DNA from: Elusimicrobiota bacterium | GTDB taxonomy: Bacteria > Elusimicrobiota > Elusimicrobia > FEN-1173 | NCBI GenBank assembly: GCA_052388135.1 | Contig: JBQTIM010000069.1 | Coordinates: 4,290 to 68,289 of the forward strand | Length of the DNA stretch: 64,000 nucleotides | Reading direction: 5' to 3' | Shown here: one piece after another, positions 1 through 60,886 of the stretch | Position numbering within the stretch: the first letter of the stretch is position 1 | Layout of the letters: each line of letters opens with the position of its first letter | Program-made: the position numbers and the translations under genes | The notes under the pieces: generated by a model | What the model saw: the letters and a program-made list of their open reading frames with translations, nothing else | Told to the model about the DNA's origin: nothing | The model's database searches: none

Positions 1-4
1 TAAA

Positions 5-1027: not shown

Positions 1028-1295
1028 GGTGTCGACCTTCCCACATCGTTACGACGACATGATTATCCTGGGAGTGCTTCCGGCGGCCTCGAAATTCAAG
1101 ATAATCGGGATCAGGGAGCAAGGGTCGACCGCCAGCTCTTACACAAATCTATTGGTGGAAATCACGGAATCGAGCAATCCTCACTGGGTAGGCAAGGTGG
1201 TTTCGCCCTTAGGAATGACAACCTACGACCGGCAGACCAACCCGGTTCCCCAGTTCAAGCCCGAATACGTGGAGGAGCTGCCGGCGAAGCCGTAG
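813..1295 (+). CDS. small hypothetical protein with a hydrophobic N-terminus ('MARWKWFAMVLLSLGTLGMG'). The start is uncertain: in-frame Met codons at 918, 987 and 1059 would remove the 215-nt overlap with the upstream ORF.
   Basis: 160-aa ORF in the track with a signal-peptide-like N-terminus. It lies in the same low-GC region as the lipase-like ORF and directly upstream of the giant ORF. Confidence 0.25.
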   Translation: MARWKWFAMVLLSLGTLGMGRVDKNLSEVKPYSLVMGKRFISKVETAIFHFQGERKLLMDLFGRSPLPDRDEVSTFPHRYDDMIILGVLPAASKFKIIGIREQGSTASSYTNLLVEITESSNPHWVGKVVSPLGMTTYDRQTNPVPQFKPEYVEELPAKP

Positions 1296-1315
1296 CGCCT
1301 TCTTCGCGTGGGTTT

Positions 1316-7300: not shown

Positions 7301-8419
7301 CGAAGACGAAAAGGACCGGGAGAAAATCAGGGTGTTCTGGGAGAAGGCCCGGGAGTTGCAGAAAGGATTTCAGGATATAGAACGGAGGGGCGCGCTGAAA
7401 GAGCAGCAGGGCGAGCTCTTAATGAAGCGATACCAAGAGTGGCAGTCCAATACCAACGCGTTGTCCAAGAGCGATCCCGATTACGAGGCCAAAAAGCGGA
7501 TGTTGGAGGAAGAGCTCCGAGCGATCGAGCGGGAAATCACCCGGCTGGAGCAGGAGGACAAGCGGCCGCGGATGCCGCCGCCCCCGTCTACATAGGGAAA
7601 CTTTCTTCCTGGCTGGAAAAACAGCGGTCCGGCGCCGCTCTCGCCCCCGGCTTGGCGGCGGAACTGCGGGCCATGAAAGGCCAAGGCCGCCACGCGGAAG
7701 TTTTCCAGCGCGTCATGGCCGACGTGGTGGAGGACACCGGCTTAAAAATCATGATCCCCGAGCCCGACGCCCGCGGCTTGGCCAACCTGGCCGCCGGCGC
7801 CGCGGCCAAACCCGAATGGATGAAGGCCAAGTCCGACCCGCAAACGCGCTACGTCCTCTGGGATGACGCCAAGGCCCGGCATGGCGAAGCCTATTTGAAA
7901 GAGCACGGCAGCCGGCCCGTGGAGGTGGAAGTGGAGGGCGGACGCCGGATCCAGGCCGCCTCCGATGCCTGGGGCCGCCCCTTGTCCAAGGACGTGGATC
8001 CCACCATGGTGGAAGGCGCGGGCGTCGTGTTCCGCGATCCCGCGAAGATGGGCTATTCCACCCGCATCGCCAACGAAGCCCTGCAATGGGCCAACGCCAA
8101 ACTGAAAGAGCTCGGCTACGGCGAGGTCTTTCCCCACGGCCCCGCCAATCAATTTTCCAGAGCCCAGTCGCTGGCATACCCTCAGATCGCCTACGAGTTG
8201 ACGCCCGAAGGCGCTCTCCGCCGCTACCGCATTTCCGACGAGCGGCAAGCCCAGGCTTTCTTCCACAAAGCCCGCCAGCCCGGCAGCCCCGCCTGGAATT
8301 GGCCCTCGGACCTGTCCGTCCACGCCCGCGAGGCCCTTCCGTCTATCCCCGCGGATTTCGAGAAGGCCGGCCGGCACACAGGCCGCACGTATCCTCCGCG
8401 GGCCGACGCAGGGAATTAG
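1316..8419 (+). CDS. giant uninterrupted ORF (2367 aa) encoding hypothetical protein(s) with no recognisable enzymatic motif. It is probably a composite: two internal stretches (about 4190–4640 and 7143–7595) code better in the +1 frame, the 4972–5177 repeat element sits in-frame, and 5200–5950 is low-GC.
   Basis: There is no stop codon in this frame for 7.1 kb. At the observed base composition about 2% of random codons would be stops, so a chance open frame is excluded. Third-position GC is high over most of the ORF (checked by eye at 1316–4100, 4640–4960 and 7600–8419). It drops to ~40–45% across 4190–4640 and 7150–7595, where the +1 frame shows the G1-A2-S3 coding periodicity. Confidence 0.5.
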   Translation: MAGTAKVFGRIASAVGNFFGRLFGRPAGVEAKPETIPAGVSPRESLSAPARTLTAEASRPVYADGRVYDQGRFSWDGEAWRLEGRGRALESGFNGIRAEDGGRLPVIVESSPQGIQAMGMDWEALEGRRLLVEKPTRLPGAGTVFAGSFDVKNGGFQFHEGSLYRSEGELHARFVTKQNGELAHFPARLEGDSFSLILTETKLSTGQTVAFAGSPLTGRIQDGRASLNAGPAAARVNLSDKFGRKAQGEVQVWLAEDGLKMRGLVSGQTSIPVSLVSGSPQAADSAAAGAAPSDLPAGRYRVMAEKAGHYFLEGEVAVAETGLAPFSVDTLFQMARGVGYRMGGVEFRQDDALPNQFFKLTRRVGIRAPEGGRMKDLSTGHETIFGPANEPLFFIKPDENGKKTVRSVQGQVLPAGVQTNARGEKELDVMLGPARLQVLLETQDDKTSYVSDSRWHAAGDTTAAHDGVNAAVGAMTFDVGRARKAAASLWNRAAEARAQGLSWKETADSLWQETKAGARQIWNEDMAGLRRTQRLAGLYLMRNGIGLFKAGVNFFGTKSIPYFQPVPVNLLRHVRLKGSSESVVDKAETFLGAVLHEADKKYVAARDQGNEEVGFYSLAERRGQFTAPQMLARGVGLGAEQLGQGFLTSFFGEALEEYRGMNLDEAVLKEINIGWGGMKELAKGAFTNSYKQAPTVVEATRQVTTSVGAIGLMAVVPGRGLARGYRAASRVTGIRRVASGLKTMAADSVLGAVDMVLPLPIGVDAGDMVRGVAGEYRAGRVRESLGLGTKDNIQVLTRDGRYVYLRVMGDDGASLPSLARLENLAQRAAEKNFVLDLEIAGGESVARQLEARPEYMAALSREGLARVGDYTNGLKSGAVNLRSAAVAEEMRFRSLSLKKETQFRLVDSELAAGRAREAKLKSLESQGNVRQTGAYLAEAKRNLSGWKRWKVGLAELRWRRAERSLQNLERRAQRIEGSLSDHARDGGHPQGAGVAPRTGLEGPGGARSAPSRAGQGLEGFEGTLRRGRAESAARERTSAARERTSAAREAAGAAKDTALRSLREEIQQVETRNGALEGQRSRLQDEIRIAHEGETSARGRAESLGREIKVYDGRLSWLQERARYLTEDPAGRRVYESALTLTPDFRGLSSARARRGAGDVSLDNFPLSPDAPHPHSAFQTVWKEFGRLAAAERGSFLIPERGILSALKDFLSSEKGQVPGAPPPALGDFSFARPKEKSPKGKDAPGGLRGLFWRRSDTPAPQRPIGAIGSDLPLRQTNPLRAPQGAPDVNDALPVDGFFARAMQSRHAEAFLKGEGNFAGRNAYITKASDLDGAETPIQIADRLKLTKKVGESIELSRDADTVIVFGYDTPTRAPPDLRVPTLEDGRSYPFTTGGAATGGGASQWLVGNGSVMDLQGKGFRVKEVYSVNESGVRLAWKTVANPDGTYSVTEKVLTPPKNSKATISSISFSKRFITSLSELFSSNAKTANSSGLMNRLESQTVPSTARSVRTKQDLSFQTFPWVHEAISAVSNAQGSGLVPFRSPLSSLKSFVARVFRKTAGEEGGPAVRSTGGADGLSLYLQGFSKELGEHRARSGGSSSSQSLSTVLEDFGRRLEDLTTSESAPARPRSDLTDPKSLELYLKGFASDIEKLTSDQQGKAMIPGDGPMDALNAYLARAFRKTDMGEGPAAPGLSASYLGQTQFPPSAAPSSRFDRSSNGFMTHKVPLQEGNLEVVLVPSKSAYSPLRSDAAPDAWDAPPVPGRDTSFRLEVKHGPDGDEIVLSRPGKGLASLEDAGIGRPVGPGRIRVQSRLEAFELIRKQESLSKNQLNGLLADLSRELEALAKNEEGKLGAGPDRSKPGLLNNESGRLSTDMLLAPVLAPWKAAKKIFWKSGEALERWLPETWRAAAAERRVGAQLDALVDFRLDLEKGGMGFEEIVSRYHEIAGSRLALDGGADGGALSGRLRGGSSPVEATGPRGGRISRWLAQLSEAIGARRRKGPGENQGVLGEGPGVAERISGYRTEGRAERAAGRALNEAIPRVAVQYQRVVQERSRLRGQKADVGGRAPSDRAGNHPAGAGGQAAADAAAPVYIGKLSSWLEKQRSGAALAPGLAAELRAMKGQGRHAEVFQRVMADVVEDTGLKIMIPEPDARGLANLAAGAAAKPEWMKAKSDPQTRYVLWDDAKARHGEAYLKEHGSRPVEVEVEGGRRIQAASDAWGRPLSKDVDPTMVEGAGVVFRDPAKMGYSTRIANEALQWANAKLKELGYGEVFPHGPANQFSRAQSLAYPQIAYELTPEGALRRYRISDERQAQAFFHKARQPGSPAWNWPSDLSVHAREALPSIPADFEKAGRHTGRTYPPRADAGN
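4113..4640 (+). CDS. nested +1-frame ORF encoding a K/E/Q/R-rich coiled-coil protein with an ARQEKEQ x3 tandem repeat and the C-terminal motif 'DSDPAYKTKYESLMKERQALEDELKALEGK'. It is either the C-terminal domain of an upstream protein reached by a +1 shift near ~4190, or an independent small gene (GTG start with GAGG 9 nt upstream).
   Basis: 175-aa ORF in the track. GC3 is ~72% in this frame against ~45% for the giant frame over the same bases. Codon position 1 is G-rich and position 2 is A-rich. It is paralogous to the C-terminus of the ORF at 7143–7595 (SDPxY…K(K/E)R..LE(E/D)EL(R/K)A(I/L)E). Confidence 0.45.
   Translation: MPIWRKLKEIFRGGSGGKSGSPSSGGVEPSEAYRILSDARKELKEAYQITQETAAIHRERELRLAQDLKDLEEQGQRQAELARDLKALREHFEEEGRKARQEKEQARQEKEQARQEKQQAQLKIQRYEALEKKYNKWKREMARLKDSDPAYKTKYESLMKERQALEDELKALEGK
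4407..4469 (+). repeat. 3 x 21-bp tandem repeat (gcgcggcaagagaaagaacaa), encoding (ARQEKEQ)3 in the +1-frame coiled-coil ORF
   Basis: Read directly; the third copy is degenerate. Confidence 0.7.
4972..5177. repeat. structured ~207-nt repeat element, copy 1, lying in-frame inside the giant ORF
   Basis: About 80% identical to 29924–30130. It has a 13-bp hairpin with conserved loop GCUYGUCC and two nested long-range helices, and each helix shows compensatory substitutions between the two copies. Confidence 0.6.
7143..7595 (+). CDS. nested +1-frame ORF encoding a coiled-coil protein ('…SKSDPDYEAKKRMLEEELRAIEREITRLEQEDKRPRMPPPPST'), a paralogue of the 4113–4640 product.
   Basis: Internal ATG at 7143 within track ORF 6909..7595. 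GC3 is ~78% in this frame, while the giant frame translates the same bases into G/R/A-rich low-complexity sequence. The ORF upstream of 7143 in this frame is R/W-rich junk. Confidence 0.45.
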   Translation: MKLLGADSLWTAERMAELYRDDYEAGLRRWRQLGRVAEEYHVGWLNYRKRLEREDEKDREKIRVFWEKARELQKGFQDIERRGALKEQQGELLMKRYQEWQSNTNALSKSDPDYEAKKRMLEEELRAIEREITRLEQEDKRPRMPPPPST

Positions 8420-10256: not shown

Positions 10257-10369
10257 TAAGGCCGCTTTGCGCCTTATGAAGTATGATCTGACGACCCGGC
10301 TGTAATGGGCGGACTTCTTTTTAAGCCCAGGCGACAGCCGAAAATTCGACCGTGCATGAGGGATGCGCC

Positions 10370-11515
10370 ATGAAAAAATTCAAGCGAGTGATGGTCTTTC
10401 TAAGCTTAATCGCTCTTGCCTCAGGCCCATTGTTCGCCGGCGTGCCCAACCGTATCGTTTATCAGGGGCGGCTGACGAAATCGGGCGTGAGCGTAAGCGG
10501 GGCGCACACGTTCCGGGCCCGGCTCATTTCTGCCGGCGGCGCGGAAATATGGAACAGCGGGGATCTGGCGCTCACCCTGCCGCCCTCCGGAGACTTCACT
10601 CTGGTCCTCTCCCCGTCCGGCGTCAATTGGATCAACGATGACCCCAAACTCGAAATCTCCGTGGACGGCGACATCCTCAATCCCTCCGACACCTTCGCCG
10701 CCAGCCCCTACGCCATCGTCGCCTCGACTGCCCAATACGCCTTTGCCGCGGCCAACGCCGCCAGCGCGGATGCCGTGGCGAACGGAAGCGTCAACGACAA
10801 TTCCATAGCGGCGGGCGCCGGCATCGCCCTCTCCAAGCTGTCGCCGGGCGCGTTCCCGGCGGGAACCTATTCTTACGCCGGATCCAACGTGGCCTTCGGC
10901 GGCCCCGGCGTTTGGGATGCCGCCGGGAATCTGGGCATCGGGACGTCGTCCCCGGAAAAAAAGCTGGATGTGCGGGGCGAGGCGCGGAGCACCGTGGGTG
11001 GGGTGAATTTCCATATGGTTCCGGTGGGGACGGTCATCGCCTATGCGGGGGCCACGCCCCCCGCCGGCTGGTTGTTTTGCAACGGCCAGGCCGTGAGCCG
11101 AACCACATACGCGTCTCTATTCGGTGCCATCGGGACAATCTATGGGGCCGGCGACGGGTCCACAACATTCAATGTGCCGGATCTGCGGGGGCGCGTGGCC
11201 GTGGGGAAGGACGATATGGGCGGGGGAGCCGCCGGCCGCATGACCGCTTATATCAACGGTTCAAGCCTAGGCGCGAGCGGGGGAAGCCAATCCCATGCTT
11301 TGTCTGTTAGTCAGCTGCCCAGCGGTCCCGGAGGCCTGTATGGATTCGTCCGCAGATCTCTGCCGGGTGAGAATGTCACGGTATCGGCTGCCGATACTGT
11401 CGGTTCTGGCACCCAAATTGATATCGTTTCTACGAACTTAATAGGGGGAGACCAGGCCCACACCAACACCCAGCCCGGCCTTATTTTGAACTACATCATT
11501 TGCGCCGGGCAGTAG
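10370..11515 (+). CDS. secreted protein with a C-terminal phage tail-collar (T4 gp12-like / MdpB-type) domain
   Basis: Signal peptide 'MKKFKRVMVFLSLIALASGPLFA'. The C-terminal region 'IAYAGATPPAGWLFCNGQAVSRTTYASLFGAIGTIYGAGDGSTTFNVPDLRGRVAVG…QSHALSVSQLP…GGDQAHTNTQPGLILNYIICA' matches the collar-domain consensus as I recall it. A GAGGGA RBS lies 8 nt upstream of the ATG. Confidence 0.6.
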   Translation: MKKFKRVMVFLSLIALASGPLFAGVPNRIVYQGRLTKSGVSVSGAHTFRARLISAGGAEIWNSGDLALTLPPSGDFTLVLSPSGVNWINDDPKLEISVDGDILNPSDTFAASPYAIVASTAQYAFAAANAASADAVANGSVNDNSIAAGAGIALSKLSPGAFPAGTYSYAGSNVAFGGPGVWDAAGNLGIGTSSPEKKLDVRGEARSTVGGVNFHMVPVGTVIAYAGATPPAGWLFCNGQAVSRTTYASLFGAIGTIYGAGDGSTTFNVPDLRGRVAVGKDDMGGGAAGRMTAYINGSSLGASGGSQSHALSVSQLPSGPGGLYGFVRRSLPGENVTVSAADTVGSGTQIDIVSTNLIGGDQAHTNTQPGLILNYIICAGQ

Positions 11516-15735: not shown

Positions 15736-15745
15736 ACGCCCCGGT

Positions 15746-15826
15746 CGTCATGCCGGCGAAAGCCGGTATCCAGATGAATGGAAAGTTTCTATAAGCTGGA
15801 CCCCGGCTTTCGCCGGGGTGACGGTT
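15746..15826. repeat. dispersed hairpin repeat, a double module: cgtcaTgccggcgaaagccggTAtcc … ggaCCccggctttcgccggGGtgacg. GNRA-loop stems form a larger inverted structure in the iscU–mnmA spacer.
   Basis: Related modules occur at 30528–30560 and inside the 38551–38680 element. Confidence 0.5.
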
Positions 15827-21216: not shown

Positions 21217-23226
21217 ATGAGCCGGGCCGAGTGGCTGTTGTTTTTAAGGAAGATCCCTTTTTTCGCCGGGTTCAGCGACGACGAGCTCGACGGCGTCGCG
21301 GCCCGCATGACCTTGGAAGCCCTGCCCAAGGACGCGGTCCTGTTCCGCCAGGGCGACCCGGGGGACGCGCTTTACATCGTCTACTCGGGGCACTTGCGCG
21401 TGATGAGCGGGGAGAACGGCCAGTCGCGCATCCTGGCCCACGTGGGCCGCCGCGGCGACGTGTTGGGCGAGATGGCCCTTCTGACCGGCGAGCCGCGCCG
21501 CAACACGGTGGAGGCCGATTCCACCACGGAGCTTTTGGTCCTGCGGCGGAAAGATTTCGAACCTCTCCTGCGTGAGCGGCCCGCCATGGCCGTTCACATT
21601 TCCCGCTTCCTGTCCCGGCGCCTGGCGGACGTCATCAAGACCAAGACCGCGGCCACGGCGGGCAGCTGGACGCCGCGGATCCATCCCGTCATGAGCCACC
21701 TGTCCCTGCCCAACCGGGTGGTGTTCACGGTGAACCTGGCCTTGGCCCTGGCCGAGCAGACCCGGCGGAAAGTTCTGCTTCTGGACATCCACGACCAGGA
21801 GTCGGGCCTCTTCGCCATGTCCCTGGGGCTGGCGCCGGTGCGCAGCGGCGAGCGGTCCCTGCGGCACGAGGACCTGGCGTCGCCCGAAGTGCTGGCGCGG
21901 CTGACGGTGTATCACCCTTCGGGGCTCGAGCTCCTGAGCCTGCCCCTGTCGCTCATCGAGGGAAAGTTCTTCAGCTCCATCTACCCCTTGCTGGCCATCC
22001 TGCGCGAGGTCTACGACATCACCCTGCTGGTCATGCCCCCGCGCCTTTCGGCGGCGGCCCGGGCCGTTTTGGAGGAGTCGGACTCCCTGATTTACGTGGA
22101 GAAGGACTCGCCCTCGCCGGGGGACGCGGAGCTGCTGGAGGGTCTGGCCGGCTTCCGGACGGCGGACCAGATTTTCCGCGTGCAGCTGGCCGAGGGGCCT
22201 CCCATGCAGGGCGGACCGGCGGTGAACTTCCGGCTTCCCTGGCGGACCACCTTGGGGCGGGAGCGCATGGAGGCGCACAACGTTTTCCTGCCCGACGACG
22301 CGCCCCTGACGCGGCGCCTCATGGACCGCCTGGCGCGGCGCCTGGGCGGCCTGCGCATCGGCTTCGCCATGGGGTCGGGGGCGGCCTACGGCTACACCAT
22401 GATCGGCATGTTGAGGGTGATGGAGCGGCACGGCATTTTCCCCGACGTCATCGCCGGCACGTCCATCGGCGCGCTCATCGGCGCGTTCTACGCCGCGGGC
22501 AAGACGCCCGACGAGCTGGAGCGCATCGCCGTGAGCATCACCAAACGGAAGATGCTCGCTTTGGCCGATTTCACGGTGCCTTGGCAGGGCGTCCTGTTGG
22601 GCCGGGAGGTGCTGAAATTTTTGAAGGAGCATCTGGGCGACAAGACGTTCGAGGAGCTGGACACGCCCTTCGCCTGCGTGGCCACGAACATTCAAACCGG
22701 GGAAGAGGTGGTGCTGAAGCAGGGGAAAGCGGCGGAGGCGGTGCGGGCGTCCTTGTCCCTGCCGTTTTTTTTCCAGCCCTTCTTCCATCAAGGGAGCTAT
22801 TTGGTGGACGGCGGCCTGGTGAACCCGGTGCCCACGTCGGTGGTGGCGTCTTTGGGGGCGAACGTGCTCGTGTCGGTGAACCTCACCTGCCGCCCGTCGG
22901 AGAAGCGCTTCCCCGGCATGAAGCGCAGCAGCCGCCGCTATTCCTCCGCTTATTTGAAGGGCCCGAACATTTTTCAGGTGATGTTGAAAACGCTCTACAC
23001 CATGCAGTACGAGGTGGCGCTCACGCGGTCGGAGATTTCCCACGTCACGCTCACGCCGGACATCGCGGCCTTCGCCTGGTCGGAGTTTCACCGCGCTCCG
23101 GAGATCATCAAGGTGGGCGAGGAGCTCATGGAGGAAAGCCTGCCCAAGATCAAGGCGCTCCTGCCCTTCTACGCCGACACCTGCCGCGTGCCCCTGCGCC
23201 TGCCGGCCGCCTTAGGCCGGTATTAG
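21217..23226 (+). CDS. cyclic-nucleotide-binding domain protein fused to a patatin-like phospholipase
   Basis: N-terminal cNMP-binding fold ('FRQGDPGDALYIVYSGHLRV…GEMALLTGEPRRNTV'). C-terminal patatin domain with oxyanion 'GSGAAYG', nucleophile 'GTSIG' and 'DGG'. Confidence 0.75.
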   Translation: MSRAEWLLFLRKIPFFAGFSDDELDGVAARMTLEALPKDAVLFRQGDPGDALYIVYSGHLRVMSGENGQSRILAHVGRRGDVLGEMALLTGEPRRNTVEADSTTELLVLRRKDFEPLLRERPAMAVHISRFLSRRLADVIKTKTAATAGSWTPRIHPVMSHLSLPNRVVFTVNLALALAEQTRRKVLLLDIHDQESGLFAMSLGLAPVRSGERSLRHEDLASPEVLARLTVYHPSGLELLSLPLSLIEGKFFSSIYPLLAILREVYDITLLVMPPRLSAAARAVLEESDSLIYVEKDSPSPGDAELLEGLAGFRTADQIFRVQLAEGPPMQGGPAVNFRLPWRTTLGRERMEAHNVFLPDDAPLTRRLMDRLARRLGGLRIGFAMGSGAAYGYTMIGMLRVMERHGIFPDVIAGTSIGALIGAFYAAGKTPDELERIAVSITKRKMLALADFTVPWQGVLLGREVLKFLKEHLGDKTFEELDTPFACVATNIQTGEEVVLKQGKAAEAVRASLSLPFFFQPFFHQGSYLVDGGLVNPVPTSVVASLGANVLVSVNLTCRPSEKRFPGMKRSSRRYSSAYLKGPNIFQVMLKTLYTMQYEVALTRSEISHVTLTPDIAAFAWSEFHRAPEIIKVGEELMEESLPKIKALLPFYADTCRVPLRLPAALGRY

Positions 23227-23300: not shown

Positions 23301-23456
23301 AGCTGGGATTCCCCGGTTGGGCGCGAGAACCAAGACGGAAAAGACGGGCCTTTCTACGAAAAATGAGAGCGCAGCGGGGACTACGGCCGAACTTTTTTGT
23401 GAAGGAAAAAGGCCCGAATTTTTCGTCGAATTCGCGATCCAACCGGGGAGTCCAGG

Positions 23457-24287
23457 TTAGACCAGGGCTTCCCAGCGGGGGCGTTGGGGCGGGGGGCGGC
23501 CGCTTTTCTCCCAGTCGTCCCGGCAGGGTTCCAGGTATTCGCACCAGCGGCAGCGCAGGGGCTCGAAGGCCCAGGGGAAGGCGTCCAGCCTCTGCACGTC
23601 CATGATTTTTTCAATGCGCCGGCTCAGGTTTTGGGCCACCTGCGCCATTTCCCAGGGAGCGGGGACGGGGAACAGGATGGGCTCCTGCAGCGCGACGCGG
23701 CCGTCGGCGCCGTCGCCCTTGACGAAGACGTCGAAGCAGAGGCCCGTGGGCGGACGGCCGAAGAGCTTTTCGCAGGCCCAGGCGTAGATCACCAGCTGGG
23801 TCTTGTCGGCCGAGCGGGCGTCGTAGGGTTTGCTCGACGTCTTGAAGTCGTGCATGACGCCCTGAGCGTCCATCAGGTCGAACTTGCCGGTGATCTGGTG
23901 GCCGCCCGGCAGGGGGATCCTGAAAAAGCATTCCACGCCCCGCGGCGCGGGCTGAAGGCCGGGCGCCCGGTCGCGCATGAAAAGCTCCACGAAGTGTTCG
24001 CCCATGGCGCGCAGATAATGGAACTCCGCCGGGCCCCGCAGCTGGTCGTCGGGGACTTTGAGCAGGCCTTCCTCCAGCTCGCGCCGGAACACGGCCATCA
24101 CCTCGGCCAGGGGCAGGTCCCGCCGCGTTTCGATCTTCTGCCGGAAATTCGCCTCCAGGGCGGCGTGCAGGGCCACGCCGAAGGCCAGCTCGGGTTTGGC
24201 CGGGGCGGGCATCTCCCGCACGTAGCGGTACTCGTACTTTTTCGGGCAGAAATAAAACGTGCTGACTTTGGAGTAAGAGGCGTTCAT
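23457..24287 (-). CDS. Cas4-like / RecB-family PD-(D/E)xK nuclease with a 4-Cys (Fe-S) signature. It is stand-alone, with no cas genes or CRISPR array in the window.
   Basis: N-terminal Cys ('FYFCPKKYEY') plus C-terminal 'CRWCEYLEPC' give the C-Xn-C-X2-C-X5-C pattern. 'DLMD…HDFK' is the nuclease core. Confidence 0.65.
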   Translation of the reverse strand: MNASYSKVSTFYFCPKKYEYRYVREMPAPAKPELAFGVALHAALEANFRQKIETRRDLPLAEVMAVFRRELEEGLLKVPDDQLRGPAEFHYLRAMGEHFVELFMRDRAPGLQPAPRGVECFFRIPLPGGHQITGKFDLMDAQGVMHDFKTSSKPYDARSADKTQLVIYAWACEKLFGRPPTGLCFDVFVKGDGADGRVALQEPILFPVPAPWEMAQVAQNLSRRIEKIMDVQRLDAFPWAFEPLRCRWCEYLEPCRDDWEKSGRPPPQRPRWEALV

Positions 24288-27988: not shown

Positions 27989-28276
27989 ATGAGAACACGC
28001 GATATTTCCCTGGGCCCTAAAAAGGCCGTCGGTTTCGAGATCAATCTGCCGGGCGCTCCCCTGCTTTTGGCGCGGGGAGAGAAGGGCTACGTCATGTGCG
28101 GGTATTTGGACATGGCCGTGGCCGATAAATTCGGCCAAGCCGCCGCCGTGGTGCGCGGAATCAAAACTTTGGATGAATTGTTGGAGAGCCCCGTGGCCGA
28201 CGTGTCCGTTCAGGCCAAGCGCCGCGGCGTCAAGCCCGGCATGACGGGGCGCCAAGCGCTCCAAAAGCTCGCCTGA
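27989..28276 (+). CDS. DUF1805-family small protein (YunC-like)
   Basis: 95 aa. 'GYVMCGYLDMAVADKFGQAAAVVRGIKTLDELL' matches my recollection of the DUF1805 core. Confidence 0.5.
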   Translation: MRTRDISLGPKKAVGFEINLPGAPLLLARGEKGYVMCGYLDMAVADKFGQAAAVVRGIKTLDELLESPVADVSVQAKRRGVKPGMTGRQALQKLA

Positions 28277-28316: not shown

Positions 28317-29822
28317 ATGACCGATCCCGCGGAACCCGAACTTTCTCTGCACGGCCTCGCCCTGGGCGGCGACGCCGTGGCCCGGCAAGAGGGGCGCGTG
28401 GTCTTCGTCCCTTACGGCGCGCCCGGCGACCGCGTGCGGACCGCCCGCTGGGAAGCCCGCAAGAATTTCGCCAAGGCTTGGATCTCGTCCATCGTCGAAC
28501 CCGCGCCCGAGCGCGTAGCCGCCCCCTGCCCCTATTTCTTCAAGCCCGGCGCCGCGCCGGAGACCGTCTGCGGCGGCTGCGACTGGCAGCAGTTGGACTA
28601 CGCCGCCCAAGCCCGGGCGAAGCGGCAACTTCTCATCGAGGCTTTCCAGCGCGTGGGCCGCATCGCCAAGCCGCCCGTGGAGGAAACCCTGGCCGCGGAG
28701 TCGCCTTGGCGCTACCGCAACAAGGCCCAAATTCCCTTTGCGCCCGCGGGCGGGCCGGACAACCCGGCCGGCGGCCTGAAAGCCGGTTTCTACGCGCCCG
28801 CCAGCCACAACATCGTCCCCTTCGACGATTGCCTGGTCCAGCCCGAGCCCGCCGTGGCCCTCTTCCGTTCCGTCAAAGAATGGTTCGCCCGCCACCCGGC
28901 GGCCGCCTACGATCAATCCACGGAACAAGGCTGGCTCCGCCACCTGCTGATCCGCGTCGGCGCCGGCGGAAACCTGCTCGCCGCCCTGGTGACCAAGGAC
29001 GAGGGCTTCCCCAACGCCGTGGCCTTCGCCGAATATTTGTCCGCCGCCAACCCGGGCCTGCGCAGTTTGTTTCAAAACGTGAACCCCAAGCCGGGCAGCG
29101 TGGTGCTGGGACCCCAGTGGCGGCACCTGTGGGGGAAACGGTATTTGGAGGAAACTCTCCTGGGCCTGCGCTTCCGGCTGTCCCCCGGAACTTTTTTCCA
29201 GGTGAACCGCGAGATGGCGGAGAAGCTTTATCAAAAAGTCGCGGAGTTCGCCGACCTGAAGCTCGAGGACCACGCCCTGGAGCTTTACGCGGGCGTGGGC
29301 GCCATCGCCCAACTCCTGGCGCGCAAGGCCAAATACGTTTGGGCCGTGGAAGACAACGCCCAGGCCGTGGAGGACGCCATCGAAAGCGCCAAGGAGAACG
29401 GCGTTTCCAACGTGCGCTTCTACCAGGGCCGCTGCGAGGACGTGCTGACCCGCGGCCGCTTCAGCCGGGGCGTGGACGACGTGCTGGGCGCCGTGGTGCT
29501 GGATCCGCCCCGCGCCGGCTGCGAACAATCGGTTCTGAAGGCCGTCATGCGCCTGGCCCCGGCGAAAATCGTTTACGTGTCCTGCGATCCCGCCACCCTG
29601 GCCCGCGACGCGCGCTACCTGTCCACCGGCGGCTACCTCCTGCGCCGCAGCGTTCCCGTGGACCTGTTTCCCCAGACCGCCCACGTGGAAAGCGTTTCCC
29701 TGTTCATGCCTTCCGGCGCGCCGCTCTCCGTTCCGCCCCCAGCGCCGCGCCCCCCGCAAAAAAATTTCCGCCCCGGCGCCCGGGATAAAAACCGCCCCTG
29801 GCGAGCCCTGCGGAAAAAGTAG
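28317..29822 (+). CDS. rlmD: 23S rRNA (uracil-C5)-methyltransferase RlmD/RumA family (TRAM domain, Fe-S Cys cluster, SAM MTase)
   Basis: N-terminal TRAM, 'CPYFFKPGAAPETVCGGCDWQ' Cys cluster, SAM motif 'LELYAGVGAI', 'VLDPPRAG', catalytic 'YVSCDPATLARD'. The ~40-aa basic C-terminal tail is unusual. Confidence 0.8.
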   Translation: MTDPAEPELSLHGLALGGDAVARQEGRVVFVPYGAPGDRVRTARWEARKNFAKAWISSIVEPAPERVAAPCPYFFKPGAAPETVCGGCDWQQLDYAAQARAKRQLLIEAFQRVGRIAKPPVEETLAAESPWRYRNKAQIPFAPAGGPDNPAGGLKAGFYAPASHNIVPFDDCLVQPEPAVALFRSVKEWFARHPAAAYDQSTEQGWLRHLLIRVGAGGNLLAALVTKDEGFPNAVAFAEYLSAANPGLRSLFQNVNPKPGSVVLGPQWRHLWGKRYLEETLLGLRFRLSPGTFFQVNREMAEKLYQKVAEFADLKLEDHALELYAGVGAIAQLLARKAKYVWAVEDNAQAVEDAIESAKENGVSNVRFYQGRCEDVLTRGRFSRGVDDVLGAVVLDPPRAGCEQSVLKAVMRLAPAKIVYVSCDPATLARDARYLSTGGYLLRRSVPVDLFPQTAHVESVSLFMPSGAPLSVPPPAPRPPQKNFRPGARDKNRPWRALRKK

Positions 29823-29923
29823 TTTAATTTAGATGTTGTGGCAGCCCCGCCAGGCCGCCGGGAATCCCCGACGGCCGTTTCGGTGTTTTGTGCGGGTTTA
29901 ATTGAGGGCAACGACCACATCGA

Positions 29924-30130
29924 AGGGGCTCCACCCCTTCACCCGGCCATACTTTCTTTTTGCTTGTCCAAAAAGAAAGTATGGAGAAAGAAAAAGGACA
30001 CCCCGGTGGCCTGCGCGCGCCGTTTTCGCGGCGGCCCGACATTCCGGCCCCTCAACAGCCCATCGGGGCCATCAGGTCGGGCCTCCCGCTTCCGCGAAAA
30101 CGGCGTGCTCGAACCGCCACAGGGGCCCGA
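29924..30130. repeat. structured ~207-nt repeat element, copy 2, intergenic between rlmD and an AT-rich islet
   Basis: See copy 1. The P1 stem reads auacuuucuuuuu/aaaaagaaaguau here versus ugacuuuuccuuug/caaaggaaaaguca in copy 1. P2 reads cgccguuuucgcgg/ccgcgaaaacggcg versus ggcuguuuuggcgg/ccgccaaaacagcc. P3 reads ggcccgac/gucgggcc versus gguccgac/gucggacc. Confidence 0.6.
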
Positions 30131-30169
30131 AAGGCTTAGATTTGGACAATACAGCCGAATAATTCAAAA

Positions 30170-30553
30170 ATGAAAACTTTAAAAATAATCCTATTCCTTT
30201 TCATTCTCTTCGCAAGCGCATTCCTTGTTTTAGGATATGCCCTTACCCATGTGTTCATTGAAAAATATCCTTTATACATTTTTAGTGCTGTAGGCGCCTT
30301 TATGTCTGCTTTGGCTACTTCTTGTTTGGCTGTAATCGGATGGTTTGTAAGCAAAATTATAGGACGCTTTAATCGAGGATATGATGCTTTAGTTAAAAGC
30401 CAACCATTACAAAACGAATATCAATTAATGATTTCTGATAACGCGGCACTATTGGGAAAGTATGGCTGGGTCCAGGGGTGGAGCCCCTGGAAAACAAAAC
30501 TGAATTCTAAAACTTACTCCACCAGCTCTGGATACCGGCTTTCGCCGGTATGA
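30170..30553 (+). CDS. small hypothetical membrane protein (two TM helices) in an AT-rich (~38% GC) islet
   Basis: 127-aa ORF. Low-GC codon usage unlike the rest of the window. Its 3' end overlaps one arm of the dispersed hairpin element. Confidence 0.4.
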   Translation: MKTLKIILFLFILFASAFLVLGYALTHVFIEKYPLYIFSAVGAFMSALATSCLAVIGWFVSKIIGRFNRGYDALVKSQPLQNEYQLMISDNAALLGKYGWVQGWSPWKTKLNSKTYSTSSGYRLSPV

Positions 30554-30620
30554 CGGTCTATCGACCCGACAAAAAAGCGGTGAGATCCTTCGCGTTGCTC
30601 AGGATGACACGCAAATTTAA

Positions 30621-33600
30621 ATGAACCAACTTCAAACACAAACATCCAACGTCCTCCGCGTGAGCGGCCTCCCCGGCGGCGCCGAAGCCTGGTGGCTCTG
30701 GCGGGAGCGGGAAAATCTGGGGCGCGTCCTGGCGCTGACGCGGTCCGACGAGCGGGCCCAGGAGCTGGCGGAGGATTTCGAGGCGCTGGAGCGCTGGCAA
30801 GACCCGGGTTCGCCCGGCCGCGCGGCCTATTTTCCCGAGGAGGAGCCCGACCAGCAGGTGGCGGCGCTTTCCCGCTGGCTGCTGGGCTGGCCGGCGGGAG
30901 AGCTCACGTCGGCGCAGGCCGGCCGCCGGGAAACGGACGTCCCCTTGTTGGCGGCCGCCTGGCCCCTGGCCAAAGAGAGCCTGCCCGCGCCGGAGGAGTT
31001 CCGCCGGGCGCACCGCGACCTGCGCGTGGGGGAGCGTCTGGACCGCGGAGAATTGATCGCCCATCTGGCGCGCGCGGGCTACAGCCGCGTGGACGCCGTG
31101 GAGCAAAGCGGGGAGATGGCCGTGCGCGGCGAGGTCCTGGACCTGTGGTCGCCGGGCTGGGAGGTGCCCCTGCGCGCCCTTTGGCCCTTCGACCGCATCG
31201 AGTCCCTGCGCAAAATAGATTTGTCCACCCAGCGCTCGACGGACGCGGTGGACGCGGCCACGGTCCGCCCCGCGTCCCTGTCGGGTCCGTGGGCGGCGGG
31301 ACGCGCGACGCTCATGGATTATTTGGGCGGCGGCACGCTCTTCGCCTCCAACCTGCCCGAGGAGGGGCGTCCGGCGCGGGAGGGGAAAACCGTTTTGCGC
31401 GTGGAGCTGGGCGCCGCCGACCGGGAGGAGAAATTTTTGCCGCCGCCGGCCGCGCCGGGCCCGGCGGCCGCCGCGTTCTTCGCCGCCGAAATCAAGAAAT
31501 GGATGGAAGCCGGCTGGACGGCCGCGATCTTCTGCCACAACCCCGGCGAGCAGGAGCGCCTGGAGGAAATCCTCCTGGAGCAGGACCGGTCCCTGTCCGC
31601 CTTTTTCGAGGCCCGCCCGTCCGCCGGCCCCGACGGACGGGAGGCGCCCGCCCGCCGGCTGGACTTCCCCATCGGCAACCTCAACCGCGGATTTTTGGAT
31701 CCGGAAAACAAGCGGGCCGTGCTCTGCAACGCCCAGATTTTCGGCCGCGCGCGGCGGCGCCTCCGCCTGCCCAAGTTCATCGGCGGCAAGTCCCTGGCCG
31801 GCGTCTCGGACCTGGCCAAGGGCGATTACGTGGTGCACGAGCAGTTCGGCGTGGGCCGCTACACCGGCCTGCGCCGCGTGAAAGCCGCCGGTGTGGAGGC
31901 GGATTACCTCACGCTGGAATACAAGGGCGGCGACCGCGTGCGGGTGCCTCTCTTCGAGTTCAAGCAGGTGCAGAAGTTCGTGGGCGCCGAAGGGAAAAAG
32001 CCCAAGCTGTCCTCCCTGGACACGGCGGCGTGGGAGCGCGCCAAGGAGAAAGTGAAGGAGGAGGTGGCCGCCCTGGCGCGGGACCTGCTGGCGCGGGCCG
32101 CCAAGCGCGCCGCCTTGGCGGGCACGGCTTTCCCGCCGGATTCCCACATGGAAAAAGAGTTCGGCGATTCCTTCCTCTATGAGCTGACGCCGGACCAGGC
32201 CCGGGCCATCCGCGAGGTGAAGGCCGACATGGTGTCGCCCCGTCCCATGGACCGGCTGGTCTGCGGCGACGTGGGCTACGGCAAGACCGAGGTGGCCATG
32301 CGGGCGGCGTTCAAGGCCGCGTCGGCGGGCCGCCAGGTGGCGGTGCTGGTGCCCACCACCATTCTGGCGGAGCAGCACGGCCGCAACTTCCGCGAGCGGT
32401 TCGCCGACTACCCCATTTCCGTGGCGGTGCTGTCGCGCTTTTCCGCGCCGGCGGAGCAAAAGCGCATCGTGGCGGACCTGCGCCGCGGCGTGCTGGACAT
32501 CGTGGTGGGGACGCACCGCCTGCTCTCGCCCGACGTGGCGTTCAAGAACCTGGGCCTCATCATCGTGGACGAGGAGCACCGCTTCGGCGTGAAGCAGAAG
32601 GAGCGCCTGGCCGCCTTCCGCGACGTGGTGGACGTTCTGGCCCTGTCGGCCACGCCCATCCCGCGCACGCTGGGGTCCGCTCTCGGCGGCCTGAAGGCCA
32701 TGTCCCTCATCGAAAGCCCGCCCGAGGGCCGCCTGCCCATCGCCACCCACGTGGGCCCCTTCGACGAAGGCGTCGTGGCCGCGGCGCTGGAGCACGAGCT
32801 TCAGCGGGGCGGCCAGGTGTTTTACGTGCACAACCGGGTGGGCTCCCTGGACTCCCGCCGCCAGTGGCTGGAAGGCCTGCTGAAGGCGCGGGGCCTCCAG
32901 GCCAAGATCGGCGCCGCCCACGGACAGATGACCGGCGCCCAGCTGGAAAAAATCATGTGGGACTTTCTGCACAAGAAGCACGACATCCTGCTTTCCACCA
33001 GCATCATCGAGTCCGGCCTGGACATCCCGTCGGTGAACACGCTGGTGGTGGAGGAAGCGGAGGACTTCGGCCTCTCCCAGCTTTATCAACTGAGGGGCCG
33101 CGTGGGCCGCGAGCGGCAGAAGGCCTATTGCTATCTTTTCCACTCGGCCCGCACGCTGAGCGAAGACGCGGAAAAACGCCTGGGAGCCCTGCGCGAGTTC
33201 GCTTCCCTCGGCGCGGGGTTCAACTTGGCCCTGCGGGACTTGGAGATCCGCGGCGCCGGCAACCTTTTGGGCCCCCAACAGCACGGGTTCGTCAACGCGG
33301 TGGGCATCGCCCTCTACGGCCGGCTGCTTTCCGACGAGATCCGCCGCCAGAGGGACGGCGCCCCGGCCGACGACGCCGGCGCCGAGCCCGCCCTGGAGCT
33401 GCCCGTTTCCGCCTACCTGCCGGAAGATTACATGCCGTCGGAGGGGGACCGGGTGGCGTTTTACAAGCGGCTGTTGGACGCGCCGGCCTCCGGGCTCGAC
33501 GCCCTCCGCGCCGAATTGGAGGACCGCTGCGGACGCCTGCCCGCCCCCGCCGCCGCCCTTTTCGAGGTGGCCGAACTGCGCCACGCGGCGAAAAAGAAAA

Positions 33601-33812
33601 AAGCCGCGCGGGTGTCGCTCGTCCGCGACGGCCTGGAGGTCCATTTCGAGAACAACGTCTCGTTTTCCCCGGCGACGCTGGAAAACCTCGTCAAGACCCA
33701 CGGCCCCGCCTTCTCGTTCCTGCCGGGCCCGCCCTTCGGCATGCGCTGGGAGCCGGCTCCGCCCGAGCCTCTGCTGGCGTGGGTCAAAAATTTCTTGTCA
33801 ACCCTCGATTGA
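30621..33812 (+). CDS. mfd: transcription-repair coupling factor
   Basis: 1063 aa. UvrB-homology N-terminus, DEEH helicase motifs ('IIVDEEHRFGV', Walker A 'GDVGYGKTEVA'), TRG motif region and C-terminal domain. Confidence 0.9.
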   Translation: MNQLQTQTSNVLRVSGLPGGAEAWWLWRERENLGRVLALTRSDERAQELAEDFEALERWQDPGSPGRAAYFPEEEPDQQVAALSRWLLGWPAGELTSAQAGRRETDVPLLAAAWPLAKESLPAPEEFRRAHRDLRVGERLDRGELIAHLARAGYSRVDAVEQSGEMAVRGEVLDLWSPGWEVPLRALWPFDRIESLRKIDLSTQRSTDAVDAATVRPASLSGPWAAGRATLMDYLGGGTLFASNLPEEGRPAREGKTVLRVELGAADREEKFLPPPAAPGPAAAAFFAAEIKKWMEAGWTAAIFCHNPGEQERLEEILLEQDRSLSAFFEARPSAGPDGREAPARRLDFPIGNLNRGFLDPENKRAVLCNAQIFGRARRRLRLPKFIGGKSLAGVSDLAKGDYVVHEQFGVGRYTGLRRVKAAGVEADYLTLEYKGGDRVRVPLFEFKQVQKFVGAEGKKPKLSSLDTAAWERAKEKVKEEVAALARDLLARAAKRAALAGTAFPPDSHMEKEFGDSFLYELTPDQARAIREVKADMVSPRPMDRLVCGDVGYGKTEVAMRAAFKAASAGRQVAVLVPTTILAEQHGRNFRERFADYPISVAVLSRFSAPAEQKRIVADLRRGVLDIVVGTHRLLSPDVAFKNLGLIIVDEEHRFGVKQKERLAAFRDVVDVLALSATPIPRTLGSALGGLKAMSLIESPPEGRLPIATHVGPFDEGVVAAALEHELQRGGQVFYVHNRVGSLDSRRQWLEGLLKARGLQAKIGAAHGQMTGAQLEKIMWDFLHKKHDILLSTSIIESGLDIPSVNTLVVEEAEDFGLSQLYQLRGRVGRERQKAYCYLFHSARTLSEDAEKRLGALREFASLGAGFNLALRDLEIRGAGNLLGPQQHGFVNAVGIALYGRLLSDEIRRQRDGAPADDAGAEPALELPVSAYLPEDYMPSEGDRVAFYKRLLDAPASGLDALRAELEDRCGRLPAPAAALFEVAELRHAAKKKKAARVSLVRDGLEVHFENNVSFSPATLENLVKTHGPAFSFLPGPPFGMRWEPAPPEPLLAWVKNFLSTLD

Positions 33813-38550: not shown

Positions 38551-38680
38551 AATGCGGTTCAATTAATGTGTGTCACCCCGGCGAAAGCCGGGGCCCAGGC
38601 AGTAAAACTGGTTTTTAAGCAACTATTTAACGCCCTGGATACCGGCTTCCGCCGGTAAGACGGCTTAATTGAACTGCATT
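38551..38680. mobile_element. MITE-like element with imperfect terminal inverted repeats (aatgcggttcaattaa / ttaattgaactgcatt), two GNRA-loop hairpin modules inside, and a 12-bp direct repeat gcggctaaaacc on both flanks (38539–38550 and 38681–38692)
   Basis: Inverted and direct repeats read directly from the sequence. The internal modules match the hairpin repeats at 15746–15826 and 30528–30560. Confidence 0.5.
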
Positions 38681-42274: not shown

Positions 42275-42283
42275 GGATGAACG

Positions 42284-42315
42284 GCGTGAATGGTGAATCG
42301 TGAACAGTGAATCGA
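42284..42315. repeat. GTGAAT-type heptamer repeat array (ggcgtgaatggtgaatcgtgaacagtgaatcg) in the tsf–pyrH spacer; a single arm
   Basis: Read from the sequence. Related inverted pairs lie at 43739–43844 and 60772–60871. Confidence 0.5.
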
Positions 42316-43113
42316 AACGTCCACGGCACGACCATCCATGTTAAACCGCCCCCATCCGCCGTTCGCTCTGCGCGATCCGCGCCTCGGCTCGTGAGCGCGC
42401 GCCGCGTCGTCCTCAAGCTGTCGGGCGAGGCCCTGGCCGGGGACGGCCGCTCGGGCATAGACCTGAAGTCTCTTTTCGAGATCGCCAAGGAATTGAAATC
42501 CGCCCGCGGCGCCGACCATCAAATCGCCGTGGTGGTGGGCGGCGGCAACATTTGGCGCGGCGCCCGCGGCCAGGGGCTGGAGCTGGACCGCACCATTTCC
42601 GACAACATGGGCATGCTGGCCACCCTGGTCAACGCCCTGGCCCTGCAGGACGCCCTGGAGCAGCTGGGCGTGCGCACCCGCGTTCTCTCGGCGCTGGAAA
42701 TCGCCAAGGTGGCCGAACCCTACATCCGGCGGCGCGCCATCCGCCATTTGGAAAAGGGCCGCGTGGTGATCTTCGCCGCCGGCACCGGCAGCCCCTATTT
42801 CTCCACGGACACCGCGGCGGCCCTGCGCGCCTCGGAGATCGAGGCCCACGTCATTTTAAAGGCCACCCAGGTGGACGGCGTCTACGATTCCGACCCGCGC
42901 AAAAACGCCAAGGCCAGGCGCTACACGGAGCTGTCCCACGGCGAGGCCTTGAGGAAGCGGCTGGGCGTCATGGACGCCACGGCCCTTTCCCTCTGCATGG
43001 AGAACCGCATCCCCATCCGCGTGTTCAACATGCACGCGCCGGGCAACATCCGCCGCGCCATCGCCGGCGGGAAGATCGGAACGCTGATCAAGCCGGACGA
43101 CAAGCAAGGGTAA
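42307..43113 (+). CDS. pyrH: UMP kinase. The true start is more likely the GTG at 42391, giving [15 protein letters not shown].
   Basis: '[12 protein letters not shown]' and '[11 protein letters not shown]'. Its 5' end overlaps a GTGAAT-repeat element. Confidence 0.85.
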
Positions 43114-43728: not shown

Positions 43729-43738
43729 GGGAGAAGAA

Positions 43739-43844
43739 CGGCGTGAATTGTGAACAGTGAATGGTGAATAGAAAAATCAAAACATCGGCTTGGCTCCGGC
43801 TTTTGGACTTTCCCGTTCACTATTCACGATTCACCATTCACGCC
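43739..43844. repeat. inverted pair of GTGAAT-type heptamer arrays (about 32 nt each) separated by ~42 nt, in the frr–uppS spacer
   Basis: Arm 1 is ggcgtgaattgtgaacagtgaatggtgaatag. Arm 2 is cgttcactattcacgattcaccattcacgcc, whose reverse complement is ggcgtgaatggtgaatcgtgaatagtgaacg. Confidence 0.55.
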
Positions 43845-60011: not shown

Positions 60012-60075
60012 CGAATCCCCCGGTCGGATCGCGGGATTCGACGTAAAATCCGGGGCTTTTTCCTTCACGAAAAAG
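60012..60075 (+). terminator. tandem hairpins after the OMP gene: cgaatccc…gggattcg, then gcttttt…aaaaagc
   Basis: Inverted repeats read from the sequence. The T-tract is weak (only 'cttttt'). Confidence 0.3.
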
Positions 60076-60180
60076 CTCGACCGTAGTCCGGGTTACGCTC
60101 TCACTTTTTCGTTTCGTAAAAAACCCCCGTCTTTTCCGTCTCGGTCCTCGCGCCCGACCGGGGAACCCGGGTAACCGCTC

Positions 60181-60871: not shown

Positions 60872-60886
60872 CGTTTAAAGGAAATT

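Follow-up and report, generated by a model that had tools for sequence, protein, structure and literature searches.

Two kinds of described element come closest to the locus analysed here. REPINs are doublets of REP sequences that form hairpins and are mobilised by RAYT/TnpA-REP (Bertels & Rainey 2011, PMC3116915), and compensatory changes across the hairpin are common among them (PMC3116915). Miniature inverted-repeat transposable elements (MITEs) flank mobile insertion cassettes (MICs), or integron mobilisation units, such as the qnrS2 MIC (PMC5444012). The window, a 64,000-nucleotide stretch of the Elusimicrobiota bacterium contig JBQTIM010000069.1 with a G+C content of about 65%, contains two copies of a structured repeat, and the element under study is the 798-bp spacer between rlmD and mfd (29823–30620), in which the second copy lies. 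We read this spacer, with about even confidence, as a decayed accessory-gene cassette at an integration hotspot, joined to a lineage-specific, structure-dependent interspersed repeat of the MITE/REPIN kind. In form it resembles REPINs most and in behaviour MITE-flanked cassettes; it cannot be assigned to either class.

The repeat is about 205 nt long and is built of three hairpins, H1, H2 and H3, with a purine-rich linker between the last two (Table 1). An unfiltered covariance-model scan finds just two copies in the 64 kb, copy 1 and copy 2, 25 kb apart. Copy 2, folded within 29915–30140, has a minimum free energy of −115 kcal/mol (z = −7.05), and the fold of copy 1 reaches z = −5.01 against shuffles; under covariance model R1, copy 2 scores 175 bits when read on its plus strand but 36 when read on its minus strand, and copy 1 scores 161 bits. 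Most differences between the two copies are compensatory, and across three sequences, including the metagenomic copy on contig L005, 10 of 44 H3 pairs carry compensatory double changes. In a four-sequence alignment of window copies 1 and 2, the complete copy on contig L011 (L011a) and the copy on contig L013, compensatory pairs number 19 of 51, against 6.8 ± 2.0 in column shuffles, none of 500 of which reaches 19. With the partners slid out of register, 0–7 such pairs are left and the proportion of paired cells is 42–55%, as opposed to 92% in the true register. The first helix of the alignment, H2, has 6 of its 12 pairs compensatory and 100% of its cells paired; its pairs are Watson–Crick throughout, in every copy, with no G·U. 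On the alignment evidence, the helices are held by compensatory substitution, both within one genome and between genomes. H3 keeps conserved plus-strand G·U pairs (11 G·U cells versus 6 A·C cells), and this excess, together with the difference between 175 and 36 bits, argues that the plus strand is the functional strand; the data fit RNA and single-stranded DNA alike. Each H3 arm also has a short local palindrome (for example, CGCCG-TTTTCG-CGGCG) in three of the five copies read, namely copy 2, L011a and L005. A pairing of the H2 5′ arm with the purine-rich linker was considered and dropped, as it gives only 6–8 bp versus the 16 bp of H2. Rfam 15 at gathering thresholds gives no match in the whole window, and the best scores within 29780–30640 fall well below threshold (mir-202, 22 versus 51 bits; BjrC174, 19 versus 45 bits). 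The repeat is an undescribed structured family of a broadly known kind, and it adds to such families a well-supported one without an Rfam match, its 19 compensatory pairs coming from four sequences only.

About six members of the family are known: the two in the window, two within 12 kb of L011, one on L013 and one on L005. The copy density of 2 per 64 kb, extrapolated from the window alone, would correspond to roughly 100 copies per 3 Mb. The apical-loop motif CCCCTCAACNGCCCATCGGGG finds one true homologue (L005) and two chance matches among metagenome contigs and one chance coding match (L002) among genome contigs, and viral contigs contain no match to any of three motifs; the apical loop varies between genomes, so the motif is too narrow. 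In GCA_964484135.1, the repeat carries a 3′ tail of two tandem units of about 45 nt, which are similar to the last part of H3 and terminate in CTCATGACGSCYSCACGGGG (L011 1200–1290, minus strand; L012 7671–7706). These tail motifs were not found in the window, where the copies have no tail.

Similar to REPINs, the repeat is interspersed, mostly intergenic, non-coding and of comparable length, and copies from the same genome are more alike than copies from different genomes. H3 shares the REPIN architecture, being a covarying long hairpin with two inverted halves around a spacer that has a small hairpin of its own. As opposed to REPINs, the repeat has additional modules, H1, H2 and the linker, is present in just two copies in 64 kb and is linked with adjacent AT-rich genes, which is not a REPIN trait. 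No RAYT/Y1 transposase is found among the scanned open reading frames (ORFs) of the window. RAYT systems are mostly known from Proteobacteria, whereas the host of this repeat belongs to the Elusimicrobiota.

Immediately 3′ of copy 2 the composition changes. The sequence-only reading had placed the copy at 29924–30130, where alignment also finds it, and had seen behind it an AT-rich segment of about 430 bp; that segment, 30130–30560, has a GC content of 39.0% and is indeed the lowest 430-nt stretch in the 64 kb (median 65.8%, first percentile 50.2%). The 127-residue ORF with two hydrophobic segments (roughly residues 1–31 and 37–64) that had been pointed out there exists, but its description as a small membrane-protein gene does not hold, as it consists of the first 96 codons of a gene of about 260 codons followed by repeat-derived read-through. 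A word-indexed search of a 5.8-billion-protein collection returns only the ORF itself. With phmmer, nine relatives are found among 1.84 billion representatives, all 253–282 residues long and none aligning beyond about residue 95 of the ORF, counted from residue 1; the closest, P0122, has 51% identity over residues 1–95 (E = 1.8e-19) and the other eight have 33–39%. The BLASTP alignment to P0122 stops at residue 96, which corresponds to nucleotide 30457. The last 31 codons read through the inverted arm described below, a 41-nt spacer and a REP-like hairpin, the final codons traversing the hairpin up to a stop codon at 30551–30553, in agreement with the overlap of the 3′ end of the ORF with a GNRA hairpin that had been remarked on before. 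Judged by protein homology, what is left in the islet is the first third of a horizontally acquired gene that encoded a protein of about 260 residues with two transmembrane (TM) segments, and the 127-residue ORF is most likely a non-functional leftover.

The full-length family combines two TM helices with a helical domain of about 165 residues, whereas the ORF in the window keeps residues 1–96 only. Pfam, PADLOC and PHROGs yield no significant match to the family. P0122 as modelled by AlphaFold2 (pLDDT 84, pTM 0.70) is all-helical, comprising a pair of TM helices, a long stalk and a helical bundle, and a fold search with this model gives no significant match in the PDB, only generic helical bundles. 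An Elusimicrobiota metagenome-assembled genome (MAG) at NCBI has proteins identical to RlmD and to the 127-residue ORF. The latter is annotated there as the hypothetical protein ACT4O3_02860, which appears to be a truncated remnant with a chimeric C terminus, and not an intact small membrane protein.

The islet is followed by an inverted partial copy of the 5′ end of the repeat, comprising H1 and the 5′ arm of H2 (Smith–Waterman score 51; arms 499 nt apart). As far as the alignments place the two boundaries, protein homology ends exactly where repeat-derived sequence starts, and the inverted arm closes the islet on its right.

Two other loci show the repeat next to comparable cargo. Contig L013 (Logan SRR26992858) has a GC content of about 64%, and the full-length P0122 gene on it has 29–39%. 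This gene is directly preceded by H2 (GTGACTTTTCTTG...CAAGAAAAGTCAC) and a diverged form of H3, from which its ATG is 12 nt away, and the gene order is ppdK fragment, terminator, repeat, P0122 gene, DUF1801 gene, a locus that differs from that of the window. Going by this arrangement, the repeat directly precedes a full-length homologue of the truncated gene at a different locus in another organism. L013 is closed by a near-identical copy of the REP-like hairpin of the window, which suggests that its organism is a relative of the host of the window. The second locus is provided by contigs L011 and L012, which encode identical RlmD proteins and probably represent strains of one species, yet differ past a 160-residue gene. 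Exactly at the end of the tail of the inverted repeat copy, 32 nt are replaced in L012 by a cassette 1.23 kb long with a GC content of about 41%. The cassette gene (6493–7617) is SIR2-like, with 25.6 bits for Pfam SIR2_2 against a cut-off of 24.5 and about 5e-7 for the PADLOC SIR2 models. The same inverted tail is present after the cassette, and the 16-mer that opens the tail (AAACACAAAACCAAAA) recurs in forward orientation at the SIR2 start codon. L012 is a second case of AT-rich cargo between inverted repeat-derived sequences.

Relatives of the host keep the gene order DUF1805–rlmD–mfd–PPIase. The nearest RlmD relatives, with 62–65% identity only, are 458–482 residues long and cover 92% of the RlmD of the window, and their junctions with mfd differ from the one in the window: of seven related lineages, three have a tight junction, and three others have different accessory genes there (Table 1). 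The adjacency of rlmD and mfd is ancestral, and the simplest reading is therefore that repeat and gene were placed in the junction as one block. The downstream side of rlmD appears, from these comparisons, to be a recurrent integration hotspot for accessory and defence genes across Elusimicrobiota lineages, and the insertion in the window maps to this hotspot. The RlmD of the window also has a proline- and arginine-rich C-terminal extension of about 35 residues (29715–29822) that is absent from all the 458–482-residue relatives; in L009, RlmD stops shortly past ‘VSLF’. The original stop region of rlmD may have been replaced by the insertion.

The likeness to MITE-flanked cassettes lies in a passenger gene that has no transposase and is bracketed by oppositely oriented copies of a short non-autonomous repeat, at a position where relatives have no insertion. 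The repeat is multi-copy and non-coding, as MITEs are, and is absent from the orthologous junction in L009, L010 and L017. Several features differ. Of the right-hand copy, only 33 nt are left here. There is no visible target-site duplication, since copy 1, copy 2, L011a and the 29924–30488 unit have no duplicated bases in their flanks. A single repeat copy is without terminal inverted repeats related to known insertion sequences: its ends, GGGGCTCCACCCC ... CACAGGGGCCC, do not form an inverted repeat, and H3 itself is a long palindrome. Finally, the repeat is conserved in structure and not as a transposase-binding terminal sequence.

If the spacer is a decayed cassette, the original unit would have consisted of a forward repeat, the cargo and an inverted repeat, and one deletion, starting at codon 97 and reaching the middle of the right-hand H2, would have left the present remnant. 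Repeat and gene would move as one block. The repeat would be a non-autonomous DNA element of the MITE/REPIN kind, the plus-strand hairpins of which would be recognised by a recombinase or transposase encoded elsewhere, and pairs of repeats would mobilise, or at least delimit, single AT-rich accessory genes in the manner of MITE-flanked cassettes. The mobilising step is hypothetical, since no mobilising enzyme was found: Pfam searches of the ORFs in 1–24 kb, rlmD and the islet ORF give no transposase, integrase, RAYT or reverse transcriptase.

That negative result counts against the cassette, as do the missing target-site duplication at 29924/30488 and the missing terminal inverted repeats of the single copy. 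Copy 1 has no inverted partner, and neither does the L013 copy in the 380 nt at hand; the more distant two-TM relatives on L014 and L015 are solitary lower-GC genes without a repeat. With about six members known, and none in about 110 kb from the L006–L010, L016 and L017 lineages, abundance and mobility are not demonstrated. A template switch at the H2 palindrome could also account for the inverted arm, with no need for a second copy. The shared orientation of the copies, the position of the ATG 12–46 nt past H3 in three of them and the G·U excess would fit a transcribed leader RNA just as well. A more far-reaching version of the cassette reading seems very doubtful to us: the three-hairpin element would be the recognition module of an undescribed Elusimicrobiota cassette system, and by way of its covarying plus-strand structure a recombinase encoded elsewhere would pick up AT-rich accessory or defence genes one at a time (two-TM, SIR2-like and possibly toxin-domain cassettes), carry them along and insert them into conserved intergenic hotspots, a role analogous to that of attC with an unrelated structure and bracketing by inverted copies.

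In the main alternative, the repeat would act in cis as an RNA, transcribed as the structured 5′ leader of horizontally acquired AT-rich genes, and might be a transcript stabiliser, an antiterminator, a translational control element or an RNA antitoxin, so that its link with the genes is functional and not transpositional. All four full copies share the orientation of their flanking genes, and an ATG follows H3 at 43, 46 and 12 nt in copy 2, copy 1 and L013, respectively. The loop sequences and the purine-rich linker are conserved, the strand asymmetry in bit scores and G·U cells agrees with a transcript, and the intrinsic terminator directly upstream of the L013 copy means that the repeat begins a new unit there. 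However, the copies are followed by unrelated genes (one for a two-TM protein, one for a TPR protein and an orphan stretch), and L011a has no adjacent cargo. The L005 copy is antisense to both its neighbours, and the SIR2-like gene is antisense to the inverted L011b. No promoter-like site is common to the sequences upstream of the copies, and a promoter and terminator scan of 29700–30700 is at chance level. H2 is a perfect Watson–Crick palindrome without G·U in every copy, and the repeat matches no Rfam family. On balance, a leader RNA seems unlikely.

The L011/L012 polymorphism, which falls exactly at the end of the tail of the repeat, also bears on a second alternative, in which the repeat would be a multi-copy attachment site or recombination hotspot with the role of tRNA or transfer-messenger RNA (tmRNA) 3′ ends. 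A site-specific recombinase would insert small AT-rich cassettes at its 3′ end, and the islet would be a remnant of one. As with the islets found at such 3′ ends, the element is structured and conserved, the DNA 3′ of it is foreign and variable, and strains (L011 against L012) differ by presence or absence at the boundary. The cargo is always on the 3′ side, the two tandem tail motifs of L011 (CTCATGACGSCYSCACGGGG) look as serial integration would leave them, and the 3′ half of H3 (30069–30119) has a weak direct similarity to 30519–30571 across the islet, reached by 6 of 300 shuffles. That weak match, however, coincides with the independent REP family. The clear repeat across the cargo in the window is inverted and not direct, no cargo comprises more than one gene, the window lacks the tail motif, and no integrase is found in the examined parts of the window or the fetched loci. 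We therefore hold an attachment site to be quite unlikely. The earlier suggestion of foreign or mobile DNA stands in so far as an insertion and a cassette boundary fit, given the tight junction in L009, L010 and L017 and the linkage on L013. Its other part, an attachment-site remnant, is not shown, as there is no tRNA or tmRNA, no integrase among the scanned ORFs and no visible target-site duplication; ARAGORN finds no tRNA or tmRNA gene in the window, consistent with the prior dismissal of a tRNA or tmRNA 3′-end origin.

The attC sites and gene cassettes of integrons offer a further comparison. Similar to attC, the repeat is an imperfect palindrome with structure conserved over sequence and one functional strand, it adjoins compact, compositionally atypical, promoterless ORFs, and solitary copies are scattered in the genome. 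As opposed to attC, there is no array, the copies being 25 kb apart, the cargo lies between inverted and not direct copies, and no IntI or tyrosine recombinase is found in the scanned ORFs. The R″/R′ core sites (RYYYAAC ... GTTRRRY) are absent on either strand of H3, which has the opposite polarity, GTTTTCG ... CGAAAAC, and attC was rejected as an identification.

A contig of 1,285 bp from JGI (L001) spans 29799–31083 at 98.4% identity with the same arrangement. Its 21 differences comprise 2 in the rlmD 3′ end and the spacer upstream of H1 (29809 and 29885), 8 in H1 (29929–29937), through which the hairpin is lost, 1 in the left arm at 29944, 1 in H3, a G·U to A-U change that is the sole change in H2–H3, none in 30130–30620 and 9 in the first 463 nt of mfd. 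The absence of differences in 30130–30620, compared with 9 in 463 nt of mfd, indicates that the remnant, which is fixed in the sampled species, is younger or more constrained than its flanks. The variable presence in relatives that would be expected of an insertion is thus seen at depth but not within that species. In L001 126–146, which corresponds to 29924–29944 of the window, H1 reads GGGGTTTGGGGGG and not GGGGCTCCACCCC, with 8 clustered changes; this is either a micro-rearrangement, gene conversion or an assembly artefact.

The same comparison bears on whether 29924–30488, through its 33-nt inverted arms, can flip as a switch (inverton) or pair as a long-range helix of RNA, and so control expression upstream of mfd. 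The geometry of the arms, 33 nt at 91% complementarity and 499 nt apart, is typical of invertons. In L001, however, 9 of 33 positions of the left arm are changed and the right arm is intact, so that the pairing is spoiled; H1 and the 33-bp long-range complementarity are not conserved, which argues against either device. The enclosed gene is truncated, no invertase is found nearby, and copy 1 and L013 have no such arms. A switch or functional helix is scarcely credible.

Copy 1 is also followed by a stretch of lower GC content. Measured over 300 nt at a time, the GC content of the window drops below 50% in only five segments, and the two longest of these immediately follow, on the 3′ side, the two repeat copies, of which there are no others; by a rough estimate, both copies would be so placed by chance with a probability of about 1e-3. 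The low-GC coding stretch reported here earlier is confirmed as lower in GC, but the decrease is mild and a foreign origin is not established. The sequence at 5222–6100 has no homologue and no match in Pfam, the PDB or PADLOC; being mildly low in GC and without a homologue, the flank cannot be called foreign with confidence. The placement of the low-GC segments speaks to a third alternative, coincidence, in which the repeat and the AT-rich scrap were gathered independently in a permissive intergenic site. The junction does take unrelated insertions in several lineages, and a second, independent REP family occupies the same spacer. Coincidence is nevertheless already disfavoured and, in our view, highly improbable, as two separate loci have a homologous gene behind a homologous repeat, each copy in the window is followed by one of the two longest low-GC segments and protein homology ends exactly at repeat-derived sequence.

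Copy 1 lies inside a mechanical ORF of 2367 residues, 1316–8419, in which codon-phase GC alternates between two frames; there is no codon-phase signal across copy 1. The giant frame appears coding at 1350–4050, 4650–4950, 6000–6900 and 7650–8419, and the other frame at 4113–4640 and 6909–7595, which encode coiled-coil paralogues (E = 1e-6). The segments past both paralogues open with ‘VYxGxLSxWL’ at or over the paralogue stop, without a start codon. No Pfam domains are found in the ORF of 1316–8419, which could be a programmed frameshift, a case of translational coupling or a decayed polymorphic-toxin-like locus.

The position of copy 1 within a long open frame recalls the Rickettsia palindromic elements (RPEs) reportedly described by Ogata et al. 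in 2000. RPEs are hairpin-forming repeats of 100–150 nt, located between genes and inside open reading frames. They differ from copy 1 in that translation through the latter is not established, and RPEs are not known to take neighbouring genes with them. Two other classes were rejected. A retron msr-msd would require an adjacent reverse transcriptase, whereas the neighbours are rlmD, the two-TM remnant and mfd in the window, and ppdK, the two-TM gene and the DUF1801 gene on L013. For a riboswitch or cis leader, there is no single functional class downstream (the two-TM gene twice, an orphan stretch, a TPR gene and none; one copy is antisense).

The link of a structured repeat with AT-rich genes, one of them of a defence type (SIR2-like), is unusual and reproducible. 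It suggests a concrete route, open to testing, by which small accessory genes may get in among the densely packed housekeeping genes of an uncultured phylum. If the reading as a cassette is true, the repeat could serve as a marker for new accessory and defence genes in Elusimicrobiota metagenomes.

Table 1 Features of the rlmD–mfd spacer, its flanks, the two repeat copies and related loci
Feature	Sequence	Coordinates	Strand	Remarks
DUF1805 gene	window	27989–28276		upstream of rlmD
rlmD (23S rRNA U1939 methyltransferase)	window	28317–29822	+	left flank of insertion; Pfam tRNA_U5-meth_tr
Contents of the rlmD–mfd junction	window	29823–30620		798 bp: repeat, gene remnant, inverted arm, REP hairpin
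mfd (transcription-repair coupling factor)	window	30621–33812	+	right flank of insertion; ORF; domains of syntenic orthologues: UvrB_inter, CarD_TRCF_RID, DEAD, Helicase_C, TRCF
Repeat copy 1	window	4973–5176	+	pairwise alignment with copy 2; H1 4973–4985, H2 4994–5031, H3 5046–5171
Repeat copy 2	window	29925–30127	+	pairwise alignment with copy 1; nothing aligns beyond these limits
H1 of copy 2	window	29925–29937	+	short G+C hairpin GGGG(CUCCA)CCCC at the 5′ end; also in copy 1 and L011a
H2 of copy 2	window	29947–29984	+	perfect 16-bp A+U-rich hairpin, conserved loop CUUGUC (CUYGUC across the family)
Linker between H2 and H3	window	29985–30000	+	AGAAAGAAAAAGGACA; purine-rich in all four full copies (alignments)
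H3 of copy 2	window	30001–30125	+	interrupted hairpin of about 125 nt; conserved apical loop (UCAACNGCCCAUC in copy 2)
Islet proper	window	30130–30455	+	35.0% GC; 5′ leader and codons 1–95 of the gene for a two-TM protein of about 260 residues
127-residue ORF	window	30170–30553	+	residues 1–96 match the family of about 260 residues; 97–127 read-through
Inverted partial repeat copy (H1 and 5′ arm of H2)	window	30456–30488	−	33 nt, 91% complementary to 29924–29956
A+T-rich spacer	window	30489–30529		41 nt; read from sequence
REP-like hairpin in the spacer	window	30530–30556	+	GNRA loop on minus strand; arms 30532–30539 and 30544–30551; separate interspersed family
REP-like copy	window	15745–15771	−
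REP-like copy	window	15793–15824	+
REP-like copy	window	38637–38663	+
REP-like copy closing the contig	L013	1611–1636		near-identical
Lower-GC stretch 3′ of copy 1	window	5200–5950	+	51.5% GC, minimum 47%; in-frame ATG at 5222, 46 nt after H3
Long low-GC segment	window	5457–5975		minimum 47%
Long low-GC segment	window	29985–30693		minimum 34%
Repeat L011a	L011	1282–1530		complete H1–H2–H3, 102 bits; between ABC-transporter gene and TPR gene, no cargo
Repeat L011b	L011	12013–12070		inverted copy, tail plus H3, cut by contig end
Repeat copy of L013	L013	315–472		55 bits, E = 8e-14; sequence not used in building the covariance model
Repeat copy of L005 (metagenome)	L005	6590–6752		antisense to both neighbour genes
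rlmD-to-mfd gap	L009, L010, L017			10–20 bp
GDSL-like gene between rlmD and mfd	L006–L008	11542–12720 (L006)		392–413 residues
HTH and Fic genes between rlmD and mfd	L016	11505–12564
GNAT-like gene after rlmD	L011/L012			160 residues; neither contig reaches mfd

The REP-like family (GGATACCGGCTTTCGCCGGTATGACGG) in the window has four copies (Table 1), of which those at 15745 (minus strand), 30530 and 38637 (both plus strand) agree within 3 mismatches. It weakly resembles the 3′ half of H3, a score that 6 of 300 shuffles reach.

Other repeats and gene groups in the window lie away from the spacer. Runs of a TTCACCATTCACGATTCACCATTCACGCC-like heptamer occur in both orientations at 42280–42328, 43737–43768, 43802–43844 and 60827–60875, and may be regulator-binding arrays or another repeat family. 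An inverted repeat pair at 23306–23431 and 60036–60168, 36.6 kb apart and consisting of 73 nt at 85% and 48 nt at 88%, is probably another interspersed element family. A gene for a patatin-like phospholipase with a cyclic-nucleotide-binding domain adjoins a PD-(D/E)XK nuclease gene on the opposite strand (21217–23226 and 23457–24287), both being domain types often met in defence systems. The left 12 kb of the window (1–1300 and 10352–11515) has lower GC content and lower GC3 and encodes mostly orphan proteins and one phage tail collar domain; it may be an acquired region.

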